From: a virus
DNA length: 64,000 bases
Virus record (IMG/VR): IMGVR_UViG_3300040786_000066
Direction: 5' to 3' (one strand)
A program made the position numbers and the translations under genes. Within the stretch, counting starts at the first letter, position 1; each line of letters begins with the position of its first letter. The notes under the pieces are model-generated. The model ran no database searches, had not been told where the DNA came from, and saw only the letters and a program-made list of their open reading frames with translations. This document shows, in pieces, positions 20,340-28,859 of this stretch.

Positions 20340-20545
20340 TATAGGCCAAACTCTTGGCCTAAGGTTACAGTAACAGAGATTACCCGTACAATCACAACAT
20401 CGTACGTGAAAGAAGTTTGGCTCGGAAACTAGTATCTACAAGTAGGAGGGAACAAACCTACAAACCAGAACTAGTAACCTATGAGCCAAGTGCAGGTGTC
20501 GCGGTGGATTATGTCTGATAGACTAGATCGCGACCGGCCTGCTAG
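20340..20545 (+). ncRNA. candidate structured RNA (unassigned)
   Basis: TTGGCTC/GAGCCAA enclosing ACTAG/CTAGT and GTAGG/CCTAC; GCAGG/CCTGC enclosing GTCGCGGT/ATCGCGAC. Confidence 0.45.
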
Positions 20546-20763
20546 TATTCAACTAACAACTAGCAACAATGAAAACAAAGCTAATCGACTTCATCCCTTT
20601 TACGGAATACGTACGTATGGTGGAAGGCTTATAAAAGCACAAAGATCCATAACGATAAAGGAGCAACAGATAGACCAAGCTCTTATGATTTACCATGTGG
20701 TAGTTAGTATAGTACTAATAGAAATTGTCATAGAAATGGTAAAACAACTAACAACTTAACATT

Positions 20764-22428
20764 ATGAAATCACTACATTTTGGACAGATGGTGAGTCTAT
20801 GACTCGTCTGTTACTCGATTTTACCAATCAGGTGAGTTCCATAAAGTGGAGCAAATCTTAATTGATGCAGGGCTAAATGAAAATCAAATACGCATGTCTT
20901 TTGAATTAAAGCTGCAACTTACAGGAACTACAAAAACGGTGCTTTTATGGAATGTAATTTCTTAGAAAAAAGTCCGGAAGAATTTGTAGAATTATTTTAT
21001 TCCGATTGCTTTCCGCAATAGGCTGCCAAGCAGACTATGACGACACTTTCGAAGCAATAGTGATGAAAGAGCACGACAAAGACAAAAATATCCTCACAAT
21101 ACTCAAATATTTTTCTATAGATTGGATCAAGAAAACATGCTGGAAAGAAATTGTAAACCTGGCTGGGTATGAAGTGACTACCCTTATAGAAGCGGTAGAG
21201 GCAAGCGACAATTCCATATCAGGCATGCTTCTAGCAACAGGAGAATTTGTACAGTGCGGTTATCAAAGTCATATGGCATTATTTCCATTGCTTAAAACTG
21301 CAAGAGTAGCTTCAGGTGAAAACTCTTTAAGTCTGATGCTTTATCTGTATCTTCTAACTTACTTACTGGCTCTATGGCGTATTGCCTCCAGTCACAAAGT
21401 TTTTCAGAAGAGAAATACTTGCTGACCAACAGTCAAGTAGCAGAACTCTGGAAAATCAGAGAGCACAAATTTAAACACTATTCCAATACTAACAGAAATG
21501 AGAGCGTTACTGCTCAACTCCTCGGTTATTTTAGTTATAAAAAGGTTTGGGTGGAAAATTTGGTGGCCTTGAGTTTCTAGCAAATTTTATCCTGAAGTAG
21601 CATTAGCCAATTACGCAAGAACTCCAAATAAAGACTGGAAAGCTATGTTAGTCAGAACTTCGCCTAAAGAATCCATGCCCGGACTTCTCAACAGTATAAA
21701 AGCAGAAACAGAAGAAGAAACATATTCTGCAGTTTCCAAGATAATTTCAGACTTCAAAGTACACATGAACGTTATACGTAACAACGAAATTTATTGGTTT
21801 TCCAAGAATTTATAGAAGGGCAAAATGGAGTAGTCAATTGTCTTGAAAGACCTAAATGGGAGCAACCTAGAAACCTTTCTGCAGAATATACAGCCACACT
21901 CAAGTATGACATACAGATAGCCTGCTCTACAGTGCAAGGAAATATTGTTATAGGGCATACTACCAATTATGAAGTAGGACCTGAAAATGCACAGTATTTA
22001 AGAAGACTTTCAAGAAAACTGGCAGCAGACCTAAACAGCGACATTCAGCTTGAATTTGTTATAGATAAAAAAGGTACAGTAAAAATAGTACAGTTACGCG
22101 TGCTAAAAACAAAGCTGTAAGCAACTTTCAAATTAAAAGAAATTTTAGAAGATGCTTTAGTAATAGGCACAACATTCTGCAGTCCTACGTACGGCGCCAA
22201 CATACAACTAGAGCTAGACGACATTCTTATAGTGGAGCAAGATTGTTCTTCTGAAATGCTGATAAGTAAAAAAGCTTTGATTGTAGAAAACCACACTAAC
22301 TTTTCGCATATTCTTGCCCTGTCCAAAGCTTTAAACATTCCTTCAATTTACGGGACAGGCAAAATTATTCTAGGAGGAAAACCCTCTTTAGATTTAACAC
22401 AGAGTACGAAACAGGATACATAAAATAA
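20764..22428 (+). CDS. PEP-synthase/PPDK-like ATP-grasp plus swivelling phospho-His domain protein (multiple indels)
   Basis: GGKFGGL, LVRTSPKESMPGLL, VFQEFIEG and DIQLEFVID..KIVQLR (ATP-grasp); ALIVENHTNFSHILALSKALNIPSIYG (His domain). Confidence 0.7.
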
Positions 22429-23936
22429 AATAATTATGGAAGTAAAGCTAATTAAAGTAGAAGGCTGTGTAGTCGGCTGGTCTATGGAAGGAGAAAACCT
22501 TGAAGAAATGAAAAACTAGGGGCTATCAGAGACATCCAATTCTTTGGTTTTGAAGATACAGAAATAGTGTACGCAGGTAGAAAAGGCGGTGACTATGTAA
22601 CAGATCCTGGAGTGTTGTCTTGGAAACAAAAAAAGCACGACACTAGCTCCCCAAAAAAATAATGAAAAGCTAGAAGCTACAATAACAGTAGATAACTTAG
22701 TGTCGACCATGAAAACATCAATGCCATCAGAGAAGATCCTAAGAGAACGAATGAAATATTTCGTGCTGCAGGATTTTAGAGGGTATATTGTATACTAGGG
22801 AGGCTAGTACCAGGCAAACAACTTGTCTTTAAAAATATCACTTATGTGGAGATTGGATGGATAGGCCAGAAAAGAATAAAGACCAGAGAACAAACCTACA
22901 TGGAGCTGATGGTAGAAATGATGGAAGAATTCATCAAAGAACTCACTTAATAAATTGACTTATGGAAAAAGAAGTAAATGTTAGAACATACACATACGCT
23001 CAACTAGACTGTAAATATGATGCACTATGTTTAAAAGATAAAAATACAGTGCTTAGAGGAGCTTTAGAATACATGCAGCAGTACAACGGTAGGACTATAA
23101 AACATGCATTTTCATGGCTATGGGCTATGAGGATTGCGTAGGGAAGGAGAATACATAAAAGTAATAGACCATGGGTAACATACAAGAACTGGAAAACAGC
23201 TGGCTGAGGCAAAAGCTGAAGAAAAGAGAAAAGAGCTTCAAACCTTGACAGAAAACCTCATCTCTAAATACCAAGGAAAGCTTACGGGAGTCACAGTTTC
23301 GAAAGAAAAACAGATCAGCGTACGCTTCAGCTGTGTTTTATGAAAAGTTCTGGGTTACAGGCAATACGATAACAGTATTGAAATGGAACATATCCTTTTG
23401 CAGAGCAGGAAGAAATTACAAATTCTCAAGTGATAAGCTGTCTTTGACAGAAACAAAACTGAGGTATCCTCACAGGAGAACGGCTATAGTTTTGAGCACA
23501 ATTTAATAAGTTCAGGCGCCTATGGTAGGGACAAAGAAATGTCCGTAAACAAATTCATGCAACTTTGGGAGTACGGATATTTTGTGGTACAAGAACTAGA
23601 CAACGTATACACAAAACTGTGGGACAGCCGTGGGACTTGACTAGAATGGGCACAGCAACCGATGAACTAAAGTTAGATATAGCTATAAAAGCCACTGGTA
23701 TTGATGTTATAGATATAACAGAAGACTACAAGGTATTCAACGTACTCAAGTATTGTCAGTTACCGTTCTTTCAAGAACAGAAGTATCTGCCTAGAATATT
23801 CGCAGTAAAAATACTCGAATATCAGATATCCAAAATGAAGGAGGATATGGCACATCCATTCTCTACACGCACAGAACACACACGTGGAGAAATTAAAATT
23901 CTAGAAGATTTTATAAAACAATTTAACTCTTACATC

Positions 23937-24842
23937 ATGCAAGTAAAAACGATAAAGAAAATAATCAGTAAAAAAATGATCGACTGGTTAGAAACTATTC
24001 CCAACGAAAAGTTGAGATCTGACGTCAAGAAAAATATCCTCGTATCAGGAGGTTGTATCACATCATTGTTTCAAGGATTACCAGTTAACGACTACGACGT
24101 ATACATTCAGGACATGGATGTTCTGATCAGACTGGCTCAGCATTATTACCCAGGAACAACTACCACAGGTGTTGATAAAGTGCTTGACGGAAGAAAACGT
24201 GAGGACTATCTTAACAATATACAGAGCTCTTTTGAAATTGACGATAACGAATCTGAAGAAGCAGTTCGCTACAAAACACTTAAACTAGATCAAGTCAAAT
24301 TGAACATAAGTTCGATAGGAATGAAAAAAGAGCTGATTGAAGGTAAAAAATACCAGGTTGCTTTCTTTTCCCAAAATGCTATCTCCCTTACAGAAGATTT
24401 GCAGATTGTATTAAGATTCAGTGGTAACGTTACTCAAATTCACAAAACTTTCGATTTCGTGCATGCCACTAACTATTTCACCTTTGAGGAAGGATTAGTT
24501 ACAAACGTAGCAGCACTAGAAAGCATATTGACAAAGTCTTTGAGATACCAGGGATCCTTATATCCTCTTACCTCTGTAATACGTATGAAGAAATTCATAC
24601 AACGTGGTTGGACCGTAAACGCGGGAGAAATCCTTAAGATGTTGTTCCAAGTGTCTGAGTTAGACCTAAAAAACATAGAGGTGCTAGAAGAGCAGCTTAT
24701 AGGAGTTGACGTAGCTTATTTTTCGCTACTGATAACAGTGCTAAGAGATACTGAAGGAAAGCTTACCGCTCATCATTTATCTGAATTGATAGACAAGGTA
24801 TTCAATGAATACGAAGAGCCGGTTGACGAAGAAGTTAAATAA
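23937..24842 (+). CDS. phage nucleotidyltransferase (Pol-beta superfamily, poly(A) polymerase/CCA-enzyme-like head)
   Basis: ILVSGGCITSL...NDYDVY and FDFVHATNYF...R..KF..RGW motifs. The ORF track starts at 23565; the likely start is MQVKT. Confidence 0.75.
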   Translation: MQVKTIKKIISKKMIDWLETIPNEKLRSDVKKNILVSGGCITSLFQGLPVNDYDVYIQDMDVLIRLAQHYYPGTTTTGVDKVLDGRKREDYLNNIQSSFEIDDNESEEAVRYKTLKLDQVKLNISSIGMKKELIEGKKYQVAFFSQNAISLTEDLQIVLRFSGNVTQIHKTFDFVHATNYFTFEEGLVTNVAALESILTKSLRYQGSLYPLTSVIRMKKFIQRGWTVNAGEILKMLFQVSELDLKNIEVLEEQLIGVDVAYFSLLITVLRDTEGKLTAHHLSELIDKVFNEYEEPVDEEVK

Positions 24843-24857
24843 TTAAAGCATAAAAAA

Positions 24858-25615
24858 ATGAATTATTACTTAGACACGGAATTCATAGAAGGACAACAAT
24901 CTTTACGCCTTTTCGGAATACCTACAAAATCCCTTCCCACCATAGATCTGATATCGATAGGAATAGTGTCCCAAGATGGCAGAGAATATTACGCAGTTTC
25001 AAAGACTTTAATCTTAAAGAAGCGTGGAATAGAAATCAAAAGAGATCACGGAACTGCGTATAACTCGTATGGCGAAAAGCTTCAGGTAAAAGAATTCTGG
25101 ATACGGGAAAACGTGCTCAAACCGATATGGAGAGTTTGTTGCAAAAGAAACTTTAGATATTGTAAATACCGTGCTGAGCAATGGAGCCGCAGTGGCTGAT
25201 GTCAACATGGATTTTAACAGAAAAACTTTCGAAAAATTACTGCTCAAGCACGGAAAATCCAATCAGGAAATAGCAAAAGAAATAAATGACTTTTGTTCTG
25301 GTCCTAATGTACAGTTCTACTCTTACTTTGGAAGCTATGATTGGGTGGCTTTCTGTTGGTTATTTGGAAAGATGATCAATTTACCAAAACACTTGCCAAG
25401 ATATTGCAGAGACTTAAAACAGATTCTTGACGATAAAGCCGAAGCACTGGCAATGAGAATAGCTTACGAAAGTGGAAATCACACGGTATGGACCAATGAA
25501 AGATGCTTAGCAGACTTAAAAGTCATAGAGATTACCCCAAAAAACAAATGATCATATTGCTATAAGCGATGCAAAATGGAATAAAGAACTACATAAATTC
25601 CTTGAGACTAACTAA
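24858..25615 (+). CDS. DEDDh 3'-5' exoribonuclease, Rv2179c-like (indel-split)
   Basis: YYLDTEFIE, LISIGIVS.DGREYYAV, YFGSYDWVAFCWLFG.M..LP and H.AISDAKW motifs. Confidence 0.8.
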
Positions 25616-26173
25616 TTAATCAAGTGAGGTTTTCACAGGCAAAAGCGACAAACTGTAAAGCACGCTTTTACTCACTTTTAATTTAAATATTATTTATATG
25701 TCAAAAGCACTAAAAGAGAAAACACCTCTATTTTTGGACACACACATGTGTTCACAGGGTATCAGGGATCTGTACCCTATCTAAAGCCTAAGAAAGGCGC
25801 TGTAGATAATACAGGTAGACATCATGTAGGTCTATACGGAACTTGTGATGTATGCGACAAAGAATTTTATTAGCACATGTTCACATAGATGATTTGACTG
25901 GTAAATTGTTTAACTAAATAAAACCAAATACTATGGCAGATAAAAGAATACATGCTACAATTGCATACACTCCGGTGATAATGACAATATGAACTCTGCT
26001 CACATCCACTGCAAATTGTTTTGGAGAGCTGGACATAGTTCGCGTAGCGAGCAACCAAAAGGAAATGAAAACGCAATCAAAACGGGTGGTATGACTTTCC
26101 GTATAACTTCGACCCAGTATGGATGGAAGAAGATTGCAAGTATCACACAATTAAACCCTCTAAAATTTAAAAC

Positions 26174-26562
26174 ATGGAAATTACAAGAAAAGACCCTTTC
26201 ACGGGTGACATCAATACGCATAATTTGAACATCACAGGAGAAGAAATGACCCTCTGGGAAAAAGAAATACCTATATTCAAGATGCTTTTCCTAATCTTAC
26301 TGGAGACGAAAGAGAGTTTGTTAAAACAGGAATCAATATAGGAACGTTTGATGCTTTGTTTGAAGATGAAGACGAGGATGAAGATGAGGATGAAGATCTT
26401 TCTGACGACGAGTACCTTAGAATAAAATCTGGAGTAGGTAGGGATATGTACGATGAAGATGATGATGAAAATGATGATGAAGATGATGAAGACGATTGTC
26501 ATGAGTTTGACGATATGATGAGGTTGGCTAAAATACTGGCTGCAGAGTTATGTTGTGCATGA
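26174..26562 (+). CDS. protein with D/E-rich low-complexity C-terminus (indel-split)
   Basis: EDEDEDEDEDEDL...DEDDDENDDEDDEDD tract. Confidence 0.55.
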
Positions 26563-28859
26563 TGGCCATGGGAGAAAATGATCACGATTACGATATAGCG
26601 CTAGATTGGTTGATTGATAACGGGCATTATACACCTGAAAACAGCTAAGTAAATGATTAAGAAGCCGCCCCCCTTTTACCGGAAAAGAAAAGCCTAAGGA
26701 TGATAAACCAAATTTACCTATAGATTTTGGAGTTAATTACGCTATTGTAATTGCAGTTATACTTGCTTTTGTATCCATGTTTAAGCCTGAAATATCAGCT
26801 TTAAAAGAGCGTATTAAAATAAACTTTAAAAAATAAGAACATGACTAAGCAAGATCCCGCATCAACTTATACAACTGCAAAGTTCATGAGTGAGTTATCT
26901 GGTATACCAATGAACTACGAGGAGAAGTATCCTACGCTAAATTCGATGTGCTATTCTACCAAACACAAACCACCAAAAGAAAAGTAATTTTCCCAGCGGC
27001 TTATATAAAAGTGGTGACAGAATCAGGCGATATAGTAGAATACTATTCAGAGAACAGCCGCTTCGACCAGAAAGGAATTGTGGCTAAAGAGTTCATAGTA
27101 ACCAGACAAAGAGCGCTAGTTGATTTCAATGTTGAATTTGCTGTAGTTGGTAAATATAAAGACTGCGAAGGAGGGCTGGTACTCTATGGTACCGCTTTAC
27201 AAAATTAAAGATCACGATTTTTATTTCATTTAAAATATAAAACAATGGATAACACAATTAAAAAACACACACCTAAGAAAAAAGCAGAGATTTGGTCAGA
27301 TGAAGAAAAACAAAAGCTATGGTATCTTTATTTAGATAACTCTGATCTTTCTTGCTTAGATCTAGCCGAGAAAGTTAAAGGGTCTTTCATAACAGAACTG
27401 AGAACGCAATAACAGCAATGATATACAATCTTAAGCAAGCAAGCGAGCCCTCGCTCATAAAAGCAAACAATTTATCAGAAAGTGACGTTAAGAAAATAGT
27501 ACTTGAGTGGTATACTAATGGCATGTTTGCTGACATACTTCAGGACGAATACGGAAGAGATCTAGAAGAGATATTACAAGAAGAACCAAAACAGCTGAAG
27601 AACTATTAAAACAGCTATGGATATTATCACTGATTTAGAAAAGTTTGCAAACAAAAAAATTAAAAATGAGATAAAAGACTTTTGTAGACGCAGATATTTG
27701 GATCTTTAAAGAAGGAGATATATAATGGGAGGATTTGCAAAGATATGATACAAGGAAGAACATGCTCGCATTGCGGGATTATGTTTGAAAAAGAGCACGG
27801 TCATCCAGTGCTATGTAACGCCTGCTATTTTGAAGCGGACGATGAAGACAAGAAAATCTACGTGAAAGCCACGGAGAAAGAACTATAAAACAAGTACCAT
27901 GACAATAAACCTGATCACTAAAAAGAATGTAAATTTCTTTTGATTCTTATAAAAAACACCCTGCATTAACGCTGCAAAATCAAGGCTACGAAAAATAAAC
28001 AGGGATAAACTAAGTGATTTAGATAAAGCTAAGATAAAAGAAATCGAAGCTTTATTAGGTAAATCTATCGTCGGATTCAGTAGCTTTCAAAACTTTAAAC
28101 TGAGCACAAAAAATAAAGTAGGCCTAAGGTTTCAATATAATTACGATGCTGATTATGAAGGCGGTGGAAACAAAATATACTTTATAGGTGTAGGCTACAT
28201 ATTAGTAAATGAGCTCTTAGTAGGGTTCAAACCTGCTCCAAAACAAAAATTAAAAGAACCCACTAAATAAGGAATCAATGGATCAAAAGAAGATTTAATC
28301 AGCCAACACGACACTCTAAAAAAAGCGTACGACGAAGCTATAGCTCAAAACAAGCTTATATTCGAGGTAAAAGGAAACCTATTTGGTGGCATATGCTAAG
28401 TACAGACTGGAATATTACCAGACATTGATTAACCCAAAGACTAAGGAAGTTAAGGACATTGACATGGATTTCAAAAAAGAATCAGAGTAATGATAACACT
28501 TTCAGCAGGCTACGAACCAATAAAATAACACTTATGAATAAAAGCAGCTGTTCCAACATGAGGATGATAGACAGAGAAAAGACTTGCTGTAGAAAAGTGA
28601 ACCAAAGTGAAGGCAGATACGTTTATAACGTAAAAGTGTGCGGCAAAGCAGCTCCCTATACAAATAACGGTACTCACTTTTATTGTAGGCAACATTCCAA
28701 GATAGGCAGATTTGTCATCAGAAACGGAAATGTCGGTGAAATACTGGCACGCTTCAACACAGAAGAGCAGGTAAGAGCTGCTTTTCCTGATTACCCAGGC
28801 ATGCGAATGCAAAAGATTACCCTTCACACAGAAAAGATATTCACTAAAAACTAGTAAAC

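Follow-up and report, generated by a model that had tools for sequence, protein, structure and literature searches.

The 64,000-nucleotide (nt) stretch of viral DNA in IMG/VR record IMGVR_UViG_3300040786_000066 (the window) raises the question of whether its plus-strand region 20764–22428 encodes one enzyme and, if so, of which kind. No open reading frame (ORF) covers the region, within which the longest uninterrupted plus-strand frames measure 40–155 codons; throughout the window the ORFs lie almost all on the plus strand and few exceed 200 codons. A preliminary description, made from the nucleotide sequence, had reconstructed a protein of ~550 amino acids (aa) with the ATP-grasp motifs of phosphoenolpyruvate (PEP) synthase and PPDK, a C-terminal histidine domain (NFSHILALSKALNIP) and an unknown N-terminal domain of ~260 aa, without the pyruvate TIM barrel. 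The analysis indicates that the region is a single phage gene for a dikinase whose frames appear to be broken by sequencing error. The enzyme class was previously known, and what is new is a phage-only version with an unfamiliar N-terminal module. The interpretation favored here, to which a probability of roughly 0.7 is assigned, is one intact three-module phage dikinase gene whose swivel histidine would hand phosphate to the acceptor of the N-terminal module.

Reconstruction of the Gene

Three-frame translation revealed a continuous protein that switches frames between an ATG at 20764 and a TAA at 22426–22428, the same start and stop as in the preliminary description. The intact 546-aa protein P0008, encoded on a 6.6-kb JGI metagenome contig (L002) that is syntenic with the window and served as the comparison sequence, is collinear with 20799–22425 over 537 aligned codons at 76.5% identity (frameshift-aware protein-to-DNA alignment). 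This alignment requires eight 1-base deletions (at about 20817, 20936, 21004, 21330, 21539, 21580, 21798, and 22385), zero insertions and a single in-frame TAA; a ninth deletion at about 20778 lies 5' of the called start of P0008. All nine frame breaks within the dikinase gene are −1 (frame path 1>0>2>1>0>2>1>0>2>1), and with the nine missing bases restored the whole gene (20764–22428) comprises ~557 codons.

The sequence NFSHILALSKALNIP was found in the window with its histidine codon at 22307–22309, together with the motifs GLGGKFGG (Lys codon 21556–21558), VRTSPK (Arg 21654–21656), FQEFIEG, and QLEFV...VQLR (Glu 22052–22054, Gln 22091–22093, Arg 22097–22099). The window copy retains every conserved motif, including the catalytic histidine and all of the ATP-grasp residues. 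About 256 aa precede the GGK motif, in agreement with the size given earlier for the N-terminal domain, and the C-terminus comes about 40 residues past the swivel histidine; the protein therefore contains no TIM barrel, as the preliminary description had stated. Reassignment of the stop codons TGA, TAG, or TAA did not restore long ORFs, the opposite strand of the region carries short chance ORFs only, and scans of 18–24 kb for Rfam families, tRNAs, promoters, and terminators returned nothing exceeding chance.

Origin of the Frame Breaks

The genes neighboring the dikinase gene shift frame in the same manner relative to L002. Within two alignable blocks, the isolated 1-nt gaps relative to L002 consist of 20 deletions and two insertions in the window (p = 1e-4), and 8 out of 20 deletions (40%) are located in L002 homopolymers of at least four bases compared with a background of 7.6% (p = 6e-5). 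Five-base runs occur at 2.5 per kb in the window versus 3.6–4.1 per kb in the closest relatives, and four-base runs are in excess. The segment 23309–23907, which is 99% identical to L002, contains two gaps in all, each of which is a single deletion in an A5 run. This pattern is the signature of homopolymer under-calling and not of gene decay; the gene appears broken because the assembly lost single bases, mostly in homopolymer runs. A decaying dikinase pseudogene with genuine frameshifts and a genuine stop would account for the number of lesions (nine frameshifts plus a stop within 1.66 kb) but is very improbable, since each window gene that was compared is broken likewise, which would not be viable for a phage, since the breaks are all deletions and enriched in homopolymers, and since the gene keeps all catalytic residues and its identity to P0008 with no codon-level decay. 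A consequence of the systematic homopolymer deletions is that readings of the window based on ORFs, leader peptides, or codons need frameshift-aware translation.

The in-frame TAA (22118–22120, plus strand) falls where a linker joins the ATP-grasp domain to the swivel domain and aligns to Ser443 of P0008. It is also judged to be a sequence error, though with less certainty than the deletions, because it falls within a ~30-nt patch that requires several small indels relative to L002 and because the first in-frame start after it (GTG 22232) is inside the swivel fold. If the stop were genuine, the enzyme would be split into a protein containing the N-terminal domain and the ATP-grasp domain and a swivel protein of ~100 aa. 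Such a split is compatible with the position of the stop exactly in the interdomain linker, with the known two-component dikinases and with short swivel-only matches that turned up in the profile search, but it is extremely improbable: no in-frame ATG, GTG, or TTG precedes GTG 22232, a start there loses the first swivel strands, the natural splits in this dikinase family fall between the N-terminal and ATP-grasp domains, and the indel-rich patch surrounds the stop. The 95-aa swivel-only protein P0127 was considered as a natural split and rejected as a contig-edge truncated gene call. The possibility of two separate genes, which had been raised for this region, is largely removed by the single-chain organization of about 85–100 diverse homologs, the homopolymer breaks, and the lack of a usable start after the TAA.

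ATP-Grasp and Swivel Core

Structural comparison, profile links, and conserved residues each bear out the architecture proposed earlier for the protein, in which an unknown N-terminal domain precedes a PPDK-type ATP-grasp domain and a phospho-histidine swivel domain, without a barrel. An AlphaFold2 model of P0008 was obtained with a pLDDT of 88.3 and a pTM of 0.83, and a Foldseek search with the whole model returned two PPDK structures (1dik and 1kbl) and the PEP synthase 2ols as its top three matches. In VIA-align comparisons, residues 242–546 matched residues 12–504 of PPDK 2dik (Z 18.3, 271 aligned) and residues 11–864 of rifampin phosphotransferase (RPH) 5hv3 (Z 16.7), residues 448–546 matched the RPH swivel domain (5fbu residues 757–864, Z 11.2, rmsd 2.2), and generic ATP-grasp enzymes reached Z ≤10.9. 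The top three matches of the family profile among PDB sequences are all PEP synthases (8a8e, 9dae, and 2ols, E 0.028–0.66); the alignment places Q-x-E-F-V...V-Q-L-R on D-I-E-W...V-Q-S-R and F-S-H on T-S-H, so that the catalytic His, Glu, Gln, and Arg line up.

Three bridge proteins (P0153, P0165, and P0171, 312–395 aa) connect the family to the known domains, as they match the family profile with E values of 2e-13 to 1e-8 and also score above the Pfam gathering thresholds of PPDK_N and of PEP-utilizers. The alignment of P0153 with the family profile has an hhalign probability of 98.4%, and the RTSP block of the family aligns to P0153. A further protein, P0172, is a direct match to P0153 and exceeds the PPDK_N threshold, its swivel end being lost at the contig end. 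Conservation was assessed in 100 diverse full-length representatives (≤50% identity), in which K255 (100%), R288 (100%), E421 (100%), Q434 (97%), R436 (95%, with a further 4% Lys), and H507 (99%) are conserved. The first five residues are presumably equivalent to K22, R92, E323, Q335, and R337 of PPDK.

Residues ~246–443 (21528–22117) accordingly form a nucleotide-binding ATP-grasp domain of the PPDK/PEP synthase type with complete nucleotide-site residues (Lys 21556–21558, Arg 21654–21656, Glu 22052–22054, Gln 22091–22093, and Arg 22097–22099), and residues ~448–546 (22130–22425) form the mobile swivel, or phospho-histidine, domain, whose near-invariant histidine (22307–22309, in FSHILALS) is the proposed phospho-carrier; both lie on the plus strand. 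Among the criteria of the dikinase superfamily, a PPDK_N-type ATP-grasp domain, a swivel domain with a conserved histidine and the ATP-site residues were found, and the glycine-rich loop that precedes the histidine (GGxTSH in PEP synthase) is absent. The phage family represents a variant of this superfamily that is specific to phages, and its putative acceptor module is new.

The N-Terminal Module

The N-terminal module (N-domain) can be divided into two subdomains encoded on the plus strand: N1 (20764–21168, P0008 residues ~1–125), which consists of helices and a beta-hairpin and is variable or replaceable within the family, and N2 (21169–21527, residues ~126–245), an alpha/beta core that contains His159 (codon 21270–21272), Ser/Thr186-Ser187, and Tyr229 and is the proposed acceptor site. 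Residues 1–245 folded alone gave a pLDDT of 89.4. Searches of four structure libraries with the N-domain revealed no known fold, in line with its earlier description as unknown: Foldseek against the PDB found nothing convincing (best E 0.85), VIA-align against 48,161 chains gave a best Z of 3.5 (HPPK, within noise), comparisons with the ESM Atlas reached TM ≤0.37, and the best match in BFVD (E 0.014, probability 0.66) was A0A127AXQ6, an uncharacterized protein of Bacillus phage SP-15. Bacillus phage SP-15 has hypermodified DNA. With 368 aa, A0A127AXQ6 is similar in size to the stand-alone N-domain proteins described below. Language-model atlas scores for the N-domain were ≤0.80, which is below the level of a lead. 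No RPH chain is listed by the Foldseek and VIA-align searches of the N-domain, a result that is compatible with distant kinship.

Across the 100 representatives, conservation of the N-domain equals that of the catalytic core, and the invariant positions concentrate in N2 (G143, G149, H159 at 99%, S/T186 at 98%, S187, G192, and Y229 at 95%). Some members lack the first ~135 residues (N1) or carry a different sequence in their place while N2 is kept, and the N2 motif is also kept in the stand-alone N-domain proteins. Both subdomains are acidic (median isoelectric point [pI] 4.8 for N1 and 5.3 for N2) and the net charge of the N-domain is about −12. Residues 1–245 are thus predicted to form a conserved module with a fold that is not matched in the libraries. 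A reading of N2 as an HPr-like phospho-relay domain, suggested by His159 capping a helix, was considered and dropped because no HPr-like structural match was obtained.

Two-Gene Versions of the Enzyme

The profile search also yielded proteins of 313–372 aa that contain N-domain motifs only. At four independent loci an N-domain gene is located directly 5' of a mini-dikinase gene, in many cases with an overlap between the two, and the gene order is the same as the domain order in the fused protein. In L017 (4901–8068) the N-only protein P0150 is encoded upstream of, and overlapping, P0172 (ATP-grasp and swivel, PPDK_N 57 bits), which ends at the contig end. In L018/L019 (L018 3738–8299) P0173, which matches the N-domain profile with an hhalign probability of 97% (E 1e-10), is encoded upstream of, and overlapping, P0153. 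In L021/L022 (L021 2359–4620) a 415-aa protein that begins like N1 and carries the N2 motif is followed by P0165, and in L023 (521–2337) a 278-aa protein, aligned to the N2 core with a probability of 86% (E 5e-6), abuts P0171.

P0172 and P0153 are just 34% identical, indicating that the pairing of N-domain and mini-dikinase is old and conserved. Since separate N-domain genes directly precede mini-dikinase genes at four loci, the N-domain works with the dikinase core, and these gene pairs are the strongest evidence that the two form one functional unit. Most simply, the N-domain would be the acceptor-binding and catalytic site that is visited by the swivel histidine. These natural pairs favor the earlier suggestion of a new substrate chosen by the N-domain, which stands as a proposal. 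A complex prediction for a stand-alone N-domain protein and its neighboring mini-dikinase scored 0.18 against a mark of 0.32, a value that speaks neither for nor against binding.

Genes found next to the two-gene versions include an HNH-NUDIX fusion, a nucleoside 2-deoxyribosyltransferase-like gene, a polynucleotide kinase-phosphatase (PNKP) of the T4 type, a PARP-domain protein, CoaE, and a DFP/aldolase-II fusion. This neighborhood may hint at a pathway related to nucleotides or ADP-ribose.

Distribution of the Family

A word-indexed search identified 25 intact proteins of 361–585 aa, 24 of which are 537–585 aa long; a Pfam domain was detected in none of them (0/25). When 1.84 billion cluster representatives were searched exhaustively with the family profile, 239 matched with E ≤1e-3 (110 of them at E ≤1e-30), which puts the family at some 240 clusters (50% identity); about 85 proteins among the matches listed are full-length (500–600 aa). 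The matches in viral sequences are located on contigs of 434, 430, 235, 111, and 32 kb. The family is essentially restricted to phages, as the 185,579 species-representative prokaryote genomes contain a single match, which is located on a 2.3-kb contig of a metagenome-assembled genome. Proteins with ~30% identity, annotated as hypothetical, were found by tblastn in two jumbo phages of Chryseobacterium, MA9V-2 (MA9V2_167, 585 aa) and MA9V-1 (MA9V1_106); both phages were cultured on Chryseobacterium indologenes and hold intact copies. Sequence searches of Pfam, PHROGs, NCBIfam, PADLOC, and PDB with the intact proteins P0001, P0008, and P0012 returned no matches, as did a DNA search of the phage collection with the window region and a single-fragment scan of viral contigs. 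Literature searches that combined phage, crAss-like, ATP-grasp, and dikinase topics yielded no account of such an architecture.

Comparison with Known Dikinases

RPH (5hv1, 5hv3, 5fbu; PMC4844700) resembles the phage enzyme in being a single chain without a TIM barrel that combines a PPDK-type ATP-grasp domain, a C-terminal histidine swivel domain and a dedicated acceptor domain. The rifampin-binding domain of RPH, however, comprises ~430 aa and is located between the ATP-grasp and swivel domains, whereas the module of the phage enzyme comprises ~245 aa, is N-terminal and has a fold for which the structure searches listed no RPH chain. In the phage enzyme a short linker joins the ATP-grasp domain to the swivel domain, and the alignment with RPH skips from ~314 to ~757, with no rifampin-binding insert. 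The ATP-grasp domain itself is smaller (~200 aa versus ~315 in RPH), and a swivel loop without Gly-Gly and the restriction to phages further set the family apart.

PPDK and PEP synthase (1dik, 2dik, 2ols, and 8a8e) are the best match to residues 242–546 and share the conserved Lys, Arg, Glu, Gln, Arg, and His. They differ by their C-terminal TIM barrel, which is absent from the phage enzyme (the alignments with PPDK end near residue ~504 of 869, so no PEP/pyruvate barrel is matched), by the lack of the N-terminal module and by the regulatory Thr of T-S-H, which is Phe (F-S-H) in the phage family. The family therefore lies outside PPDK and PEP synthase proper, because it has no barrel, and outside the RPH family, because the rifampin-binding domain is missing and the domains come in another order.

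HpeHI, CreHI, and PpsAB (PMC12167813) distribute the ATP-grasp and swivel chemistry over two adjacent genes, to which the two-gene forms of the phage family may be likened. The split in HpeHI separates the ATP-grasp domain from the acceptor and swivel domains, whereas that in the phage family separates the N-domain from the ATP-grasp and swivel domains; moreover, the HpeHI-type acceptor domains are unrelated to the N-domain and their genes are part of aromatic-catabolism operons rather than phage genomes. Glucan water dikinase and PigC/HapC likewise join an ATP-grasp and swivel core to another acceptor module, and P0153 has weak matches to PigC and RedH, but these enzymes are far larger, have a different domain order, and carry a CBM45 or PigC substrate domain without detected similarity to the N-domain.

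Proposed Reaction

By analogy with PPDK, PEP synthase, RPH, and HpeHI, the ATP-grasp domain would bind ATP, and the swivel histidine would become (pyro)phosphorylated with release of AMP and Pi. The swivel domain would then turn to the N-terminal module, where the N2 core (His159, Ser/Thr186-Ser187, and Tyr229) would bind the acceptor and catalyze transfer of the beta-phosphate. The acceptor could be a hydroxyl-bearing small molecule, possibly derived from a nucleotide, and this seems somewhat likelier than DNA or RNA in view of the acidity of the module and of the nucleotide-metabolism genes beside the two-gene versions.

Several observations weigh against a three-module dikinase with this reaction. 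Characterized dikinases carry a glycine-rich T/S-x-x-G-G-x-x-x-H motif before the histidine (PMC12167813), whereas the swivel loop of the phage family reads (I/V)V-x-N-x-x-x-F-S-H and is without the Gly-Gly. Pfam, NCBIfam, and PHROGs fail to recognize intact family members, and the fragments of the window score under the Pfam cutoffs for PPDK_N (E = 0.03) and PEP-utilizers (E = 0.0044). The structural work describes the model of P0008, which is 76.5% identical to the protein of the window, and the N-domain is taken as the putative acceptor site from the architecture by itself. The in-frame TAA is not explicable as a simple homopolymer error. Finally, BLAST clustering of the neighboring genes at eight loci identified no partner gene common to at least three loci, and the context indicates no pathway because no neighbor gene is conserved across the fused family.

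The swivel histidine might instead pass its phosphate to a separate protein, either as a phospho-relay (compare PTS enzyme I to HPr) or as a protein kinase like those of phages, with the N-domain serving to dock or regulate. A swivel domain is also present in PTS enzyme I, for which P0153 gives a weak match (TIGR01417); the strongly acidic N-domain (pI about 5, net charge about −12) would suit a basic protein partner, and N1 is exchanged for other N-termini in some members, as in targeting modules. Such a role is nonetheless unlikely, as the near-invariant His, Ser/Thr, and Tyr of N2 look less like a docking surface than like a catalytic or ligand site, the eight loci have no conserved partner gene nearby, and the characterized ATP-grasp and swivel enzymes without a barrel all act on small molecules or glucans.

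Gene Neighborhoods

The family is found in the context of replication and nucleotide-metabolism modules. L004 encodes RNR, DNA and RNA ligases, a Tet/JBP dioxygenase (1449–2345), and a T7-type RNA polymerase; L012 (11903–15450) encodes PolB, RNR, a methyltransferase, inositol-1-P synthase, and a protein with a weak match to the helical domain of 5-hmdU DNA kinase (HMUDK_hel); and L014 encodes a sigma factor, Fpg, and glycosyltransferases. The base-modification genes in these contexts (Tet/JBP, HMUDK_hel and methyltransferase, and glycosyltransferases, respectively), together with the ATP-grasp and swivel core shared by PigC, RedH, and HapC, would fit an activating ligase, in which the swivel histidine activates an oxygen leaving group and the N-domain carries out a condensation or substitution, for example in the hypermodification of DNA or nucleotides. 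This is a distinctly unlikely function: the modification genes are several genes away (within about 5–8 kb of the dikinase gene in L012 and L004) and vary by lineage rather than being kept across lineages, the N-domain has no detected similarity to the PigC substrate domains, and an acidic domain is poorly suited to a DNA substrate.

In the clade nearest to the window, a gene with a precomputed Gad2 (PF26128) match is located a few genes downstream of the dikinase gene, an arrangement that looks like synteny by descent. The proximity of this gene, with its tentative Gad2 label, and the NUDIX, nucleoside deoxyribosyltransferase-like, PARP, and PNKP neighbors of the two-gene forms are the grounds for a tentative and rather doubtful suggestion that the family is a phage-only enzyme class in which a novel acceptor module, joined by fusion or coupling to a minimal dikinase core, phosphorylates a host-derived or immunity-related small molecule and would act as a counter-defense kinase analogous to RPH. 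Its target might be a defense signal based on nucleotides, a nucleotide that terminates chains, or a natural product directed against phages.

In the window itself, the segment 23937–24839 is 93.7% identical to the L002 protein with the precomputed Pfam Gad2 match (PF26128, anti-Gabija), and hmmscan of this window copy against Pfam found nothing, so that the Gad2 label is tentative. The segment is part of 23565–24842, the sole long ORF nearby (425 codons), which is an artefactual fusion of two genes: one base is missing from an A5 run at about 23915, and the stop that separates the homolog of L002 2928–3689 from the next gene is thereby lost. The comparison of 20517–26640 with L002 revealed a mosaic, with ~76% nucleotide identity over the dikinase gene, 99% over 23309–23907 and 65–85% thereafter. 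The window contains about 590 additional bases at 22582–23170, which hold a 59-codon ORF (22962–23141), and it lacks the two genes that are located upstream of the dikinase gene in L002, a gap that is flanked by a 33-nt exact match (20517–20549). This mosaicism looks like cassette-wise gene gain and loss among related phages.

Implications

The core of an ATP-grasp domain and a swivel histidine has been reused, each time beside another acceptor domain, in central metabolism, in the phosphorylation of starch, in the inactivation of antibiotics, in the catabolism of phenol, and in the synthesis of pigments. The phage family adds a widespread, phage-restricted version, and the contigs examined include phages of 110–434 kb. 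Its putative acceptor module has no recognizable fold and occurs both fused to the core and as a separate, translationally coupled gene. Because the cultured phages MA9V-1 and MA9V-2 hold intact copies, the target is within reach of ordinary biochemical and genetic methods. Should it prove to be an immune signal of the host or a metabolite that acts against phages, the family would represent a new counter-defense mechanism; if it is a nucleotide or a DNA-modification intermediate, the family would represent a new step in phage nucleotide metabolism.

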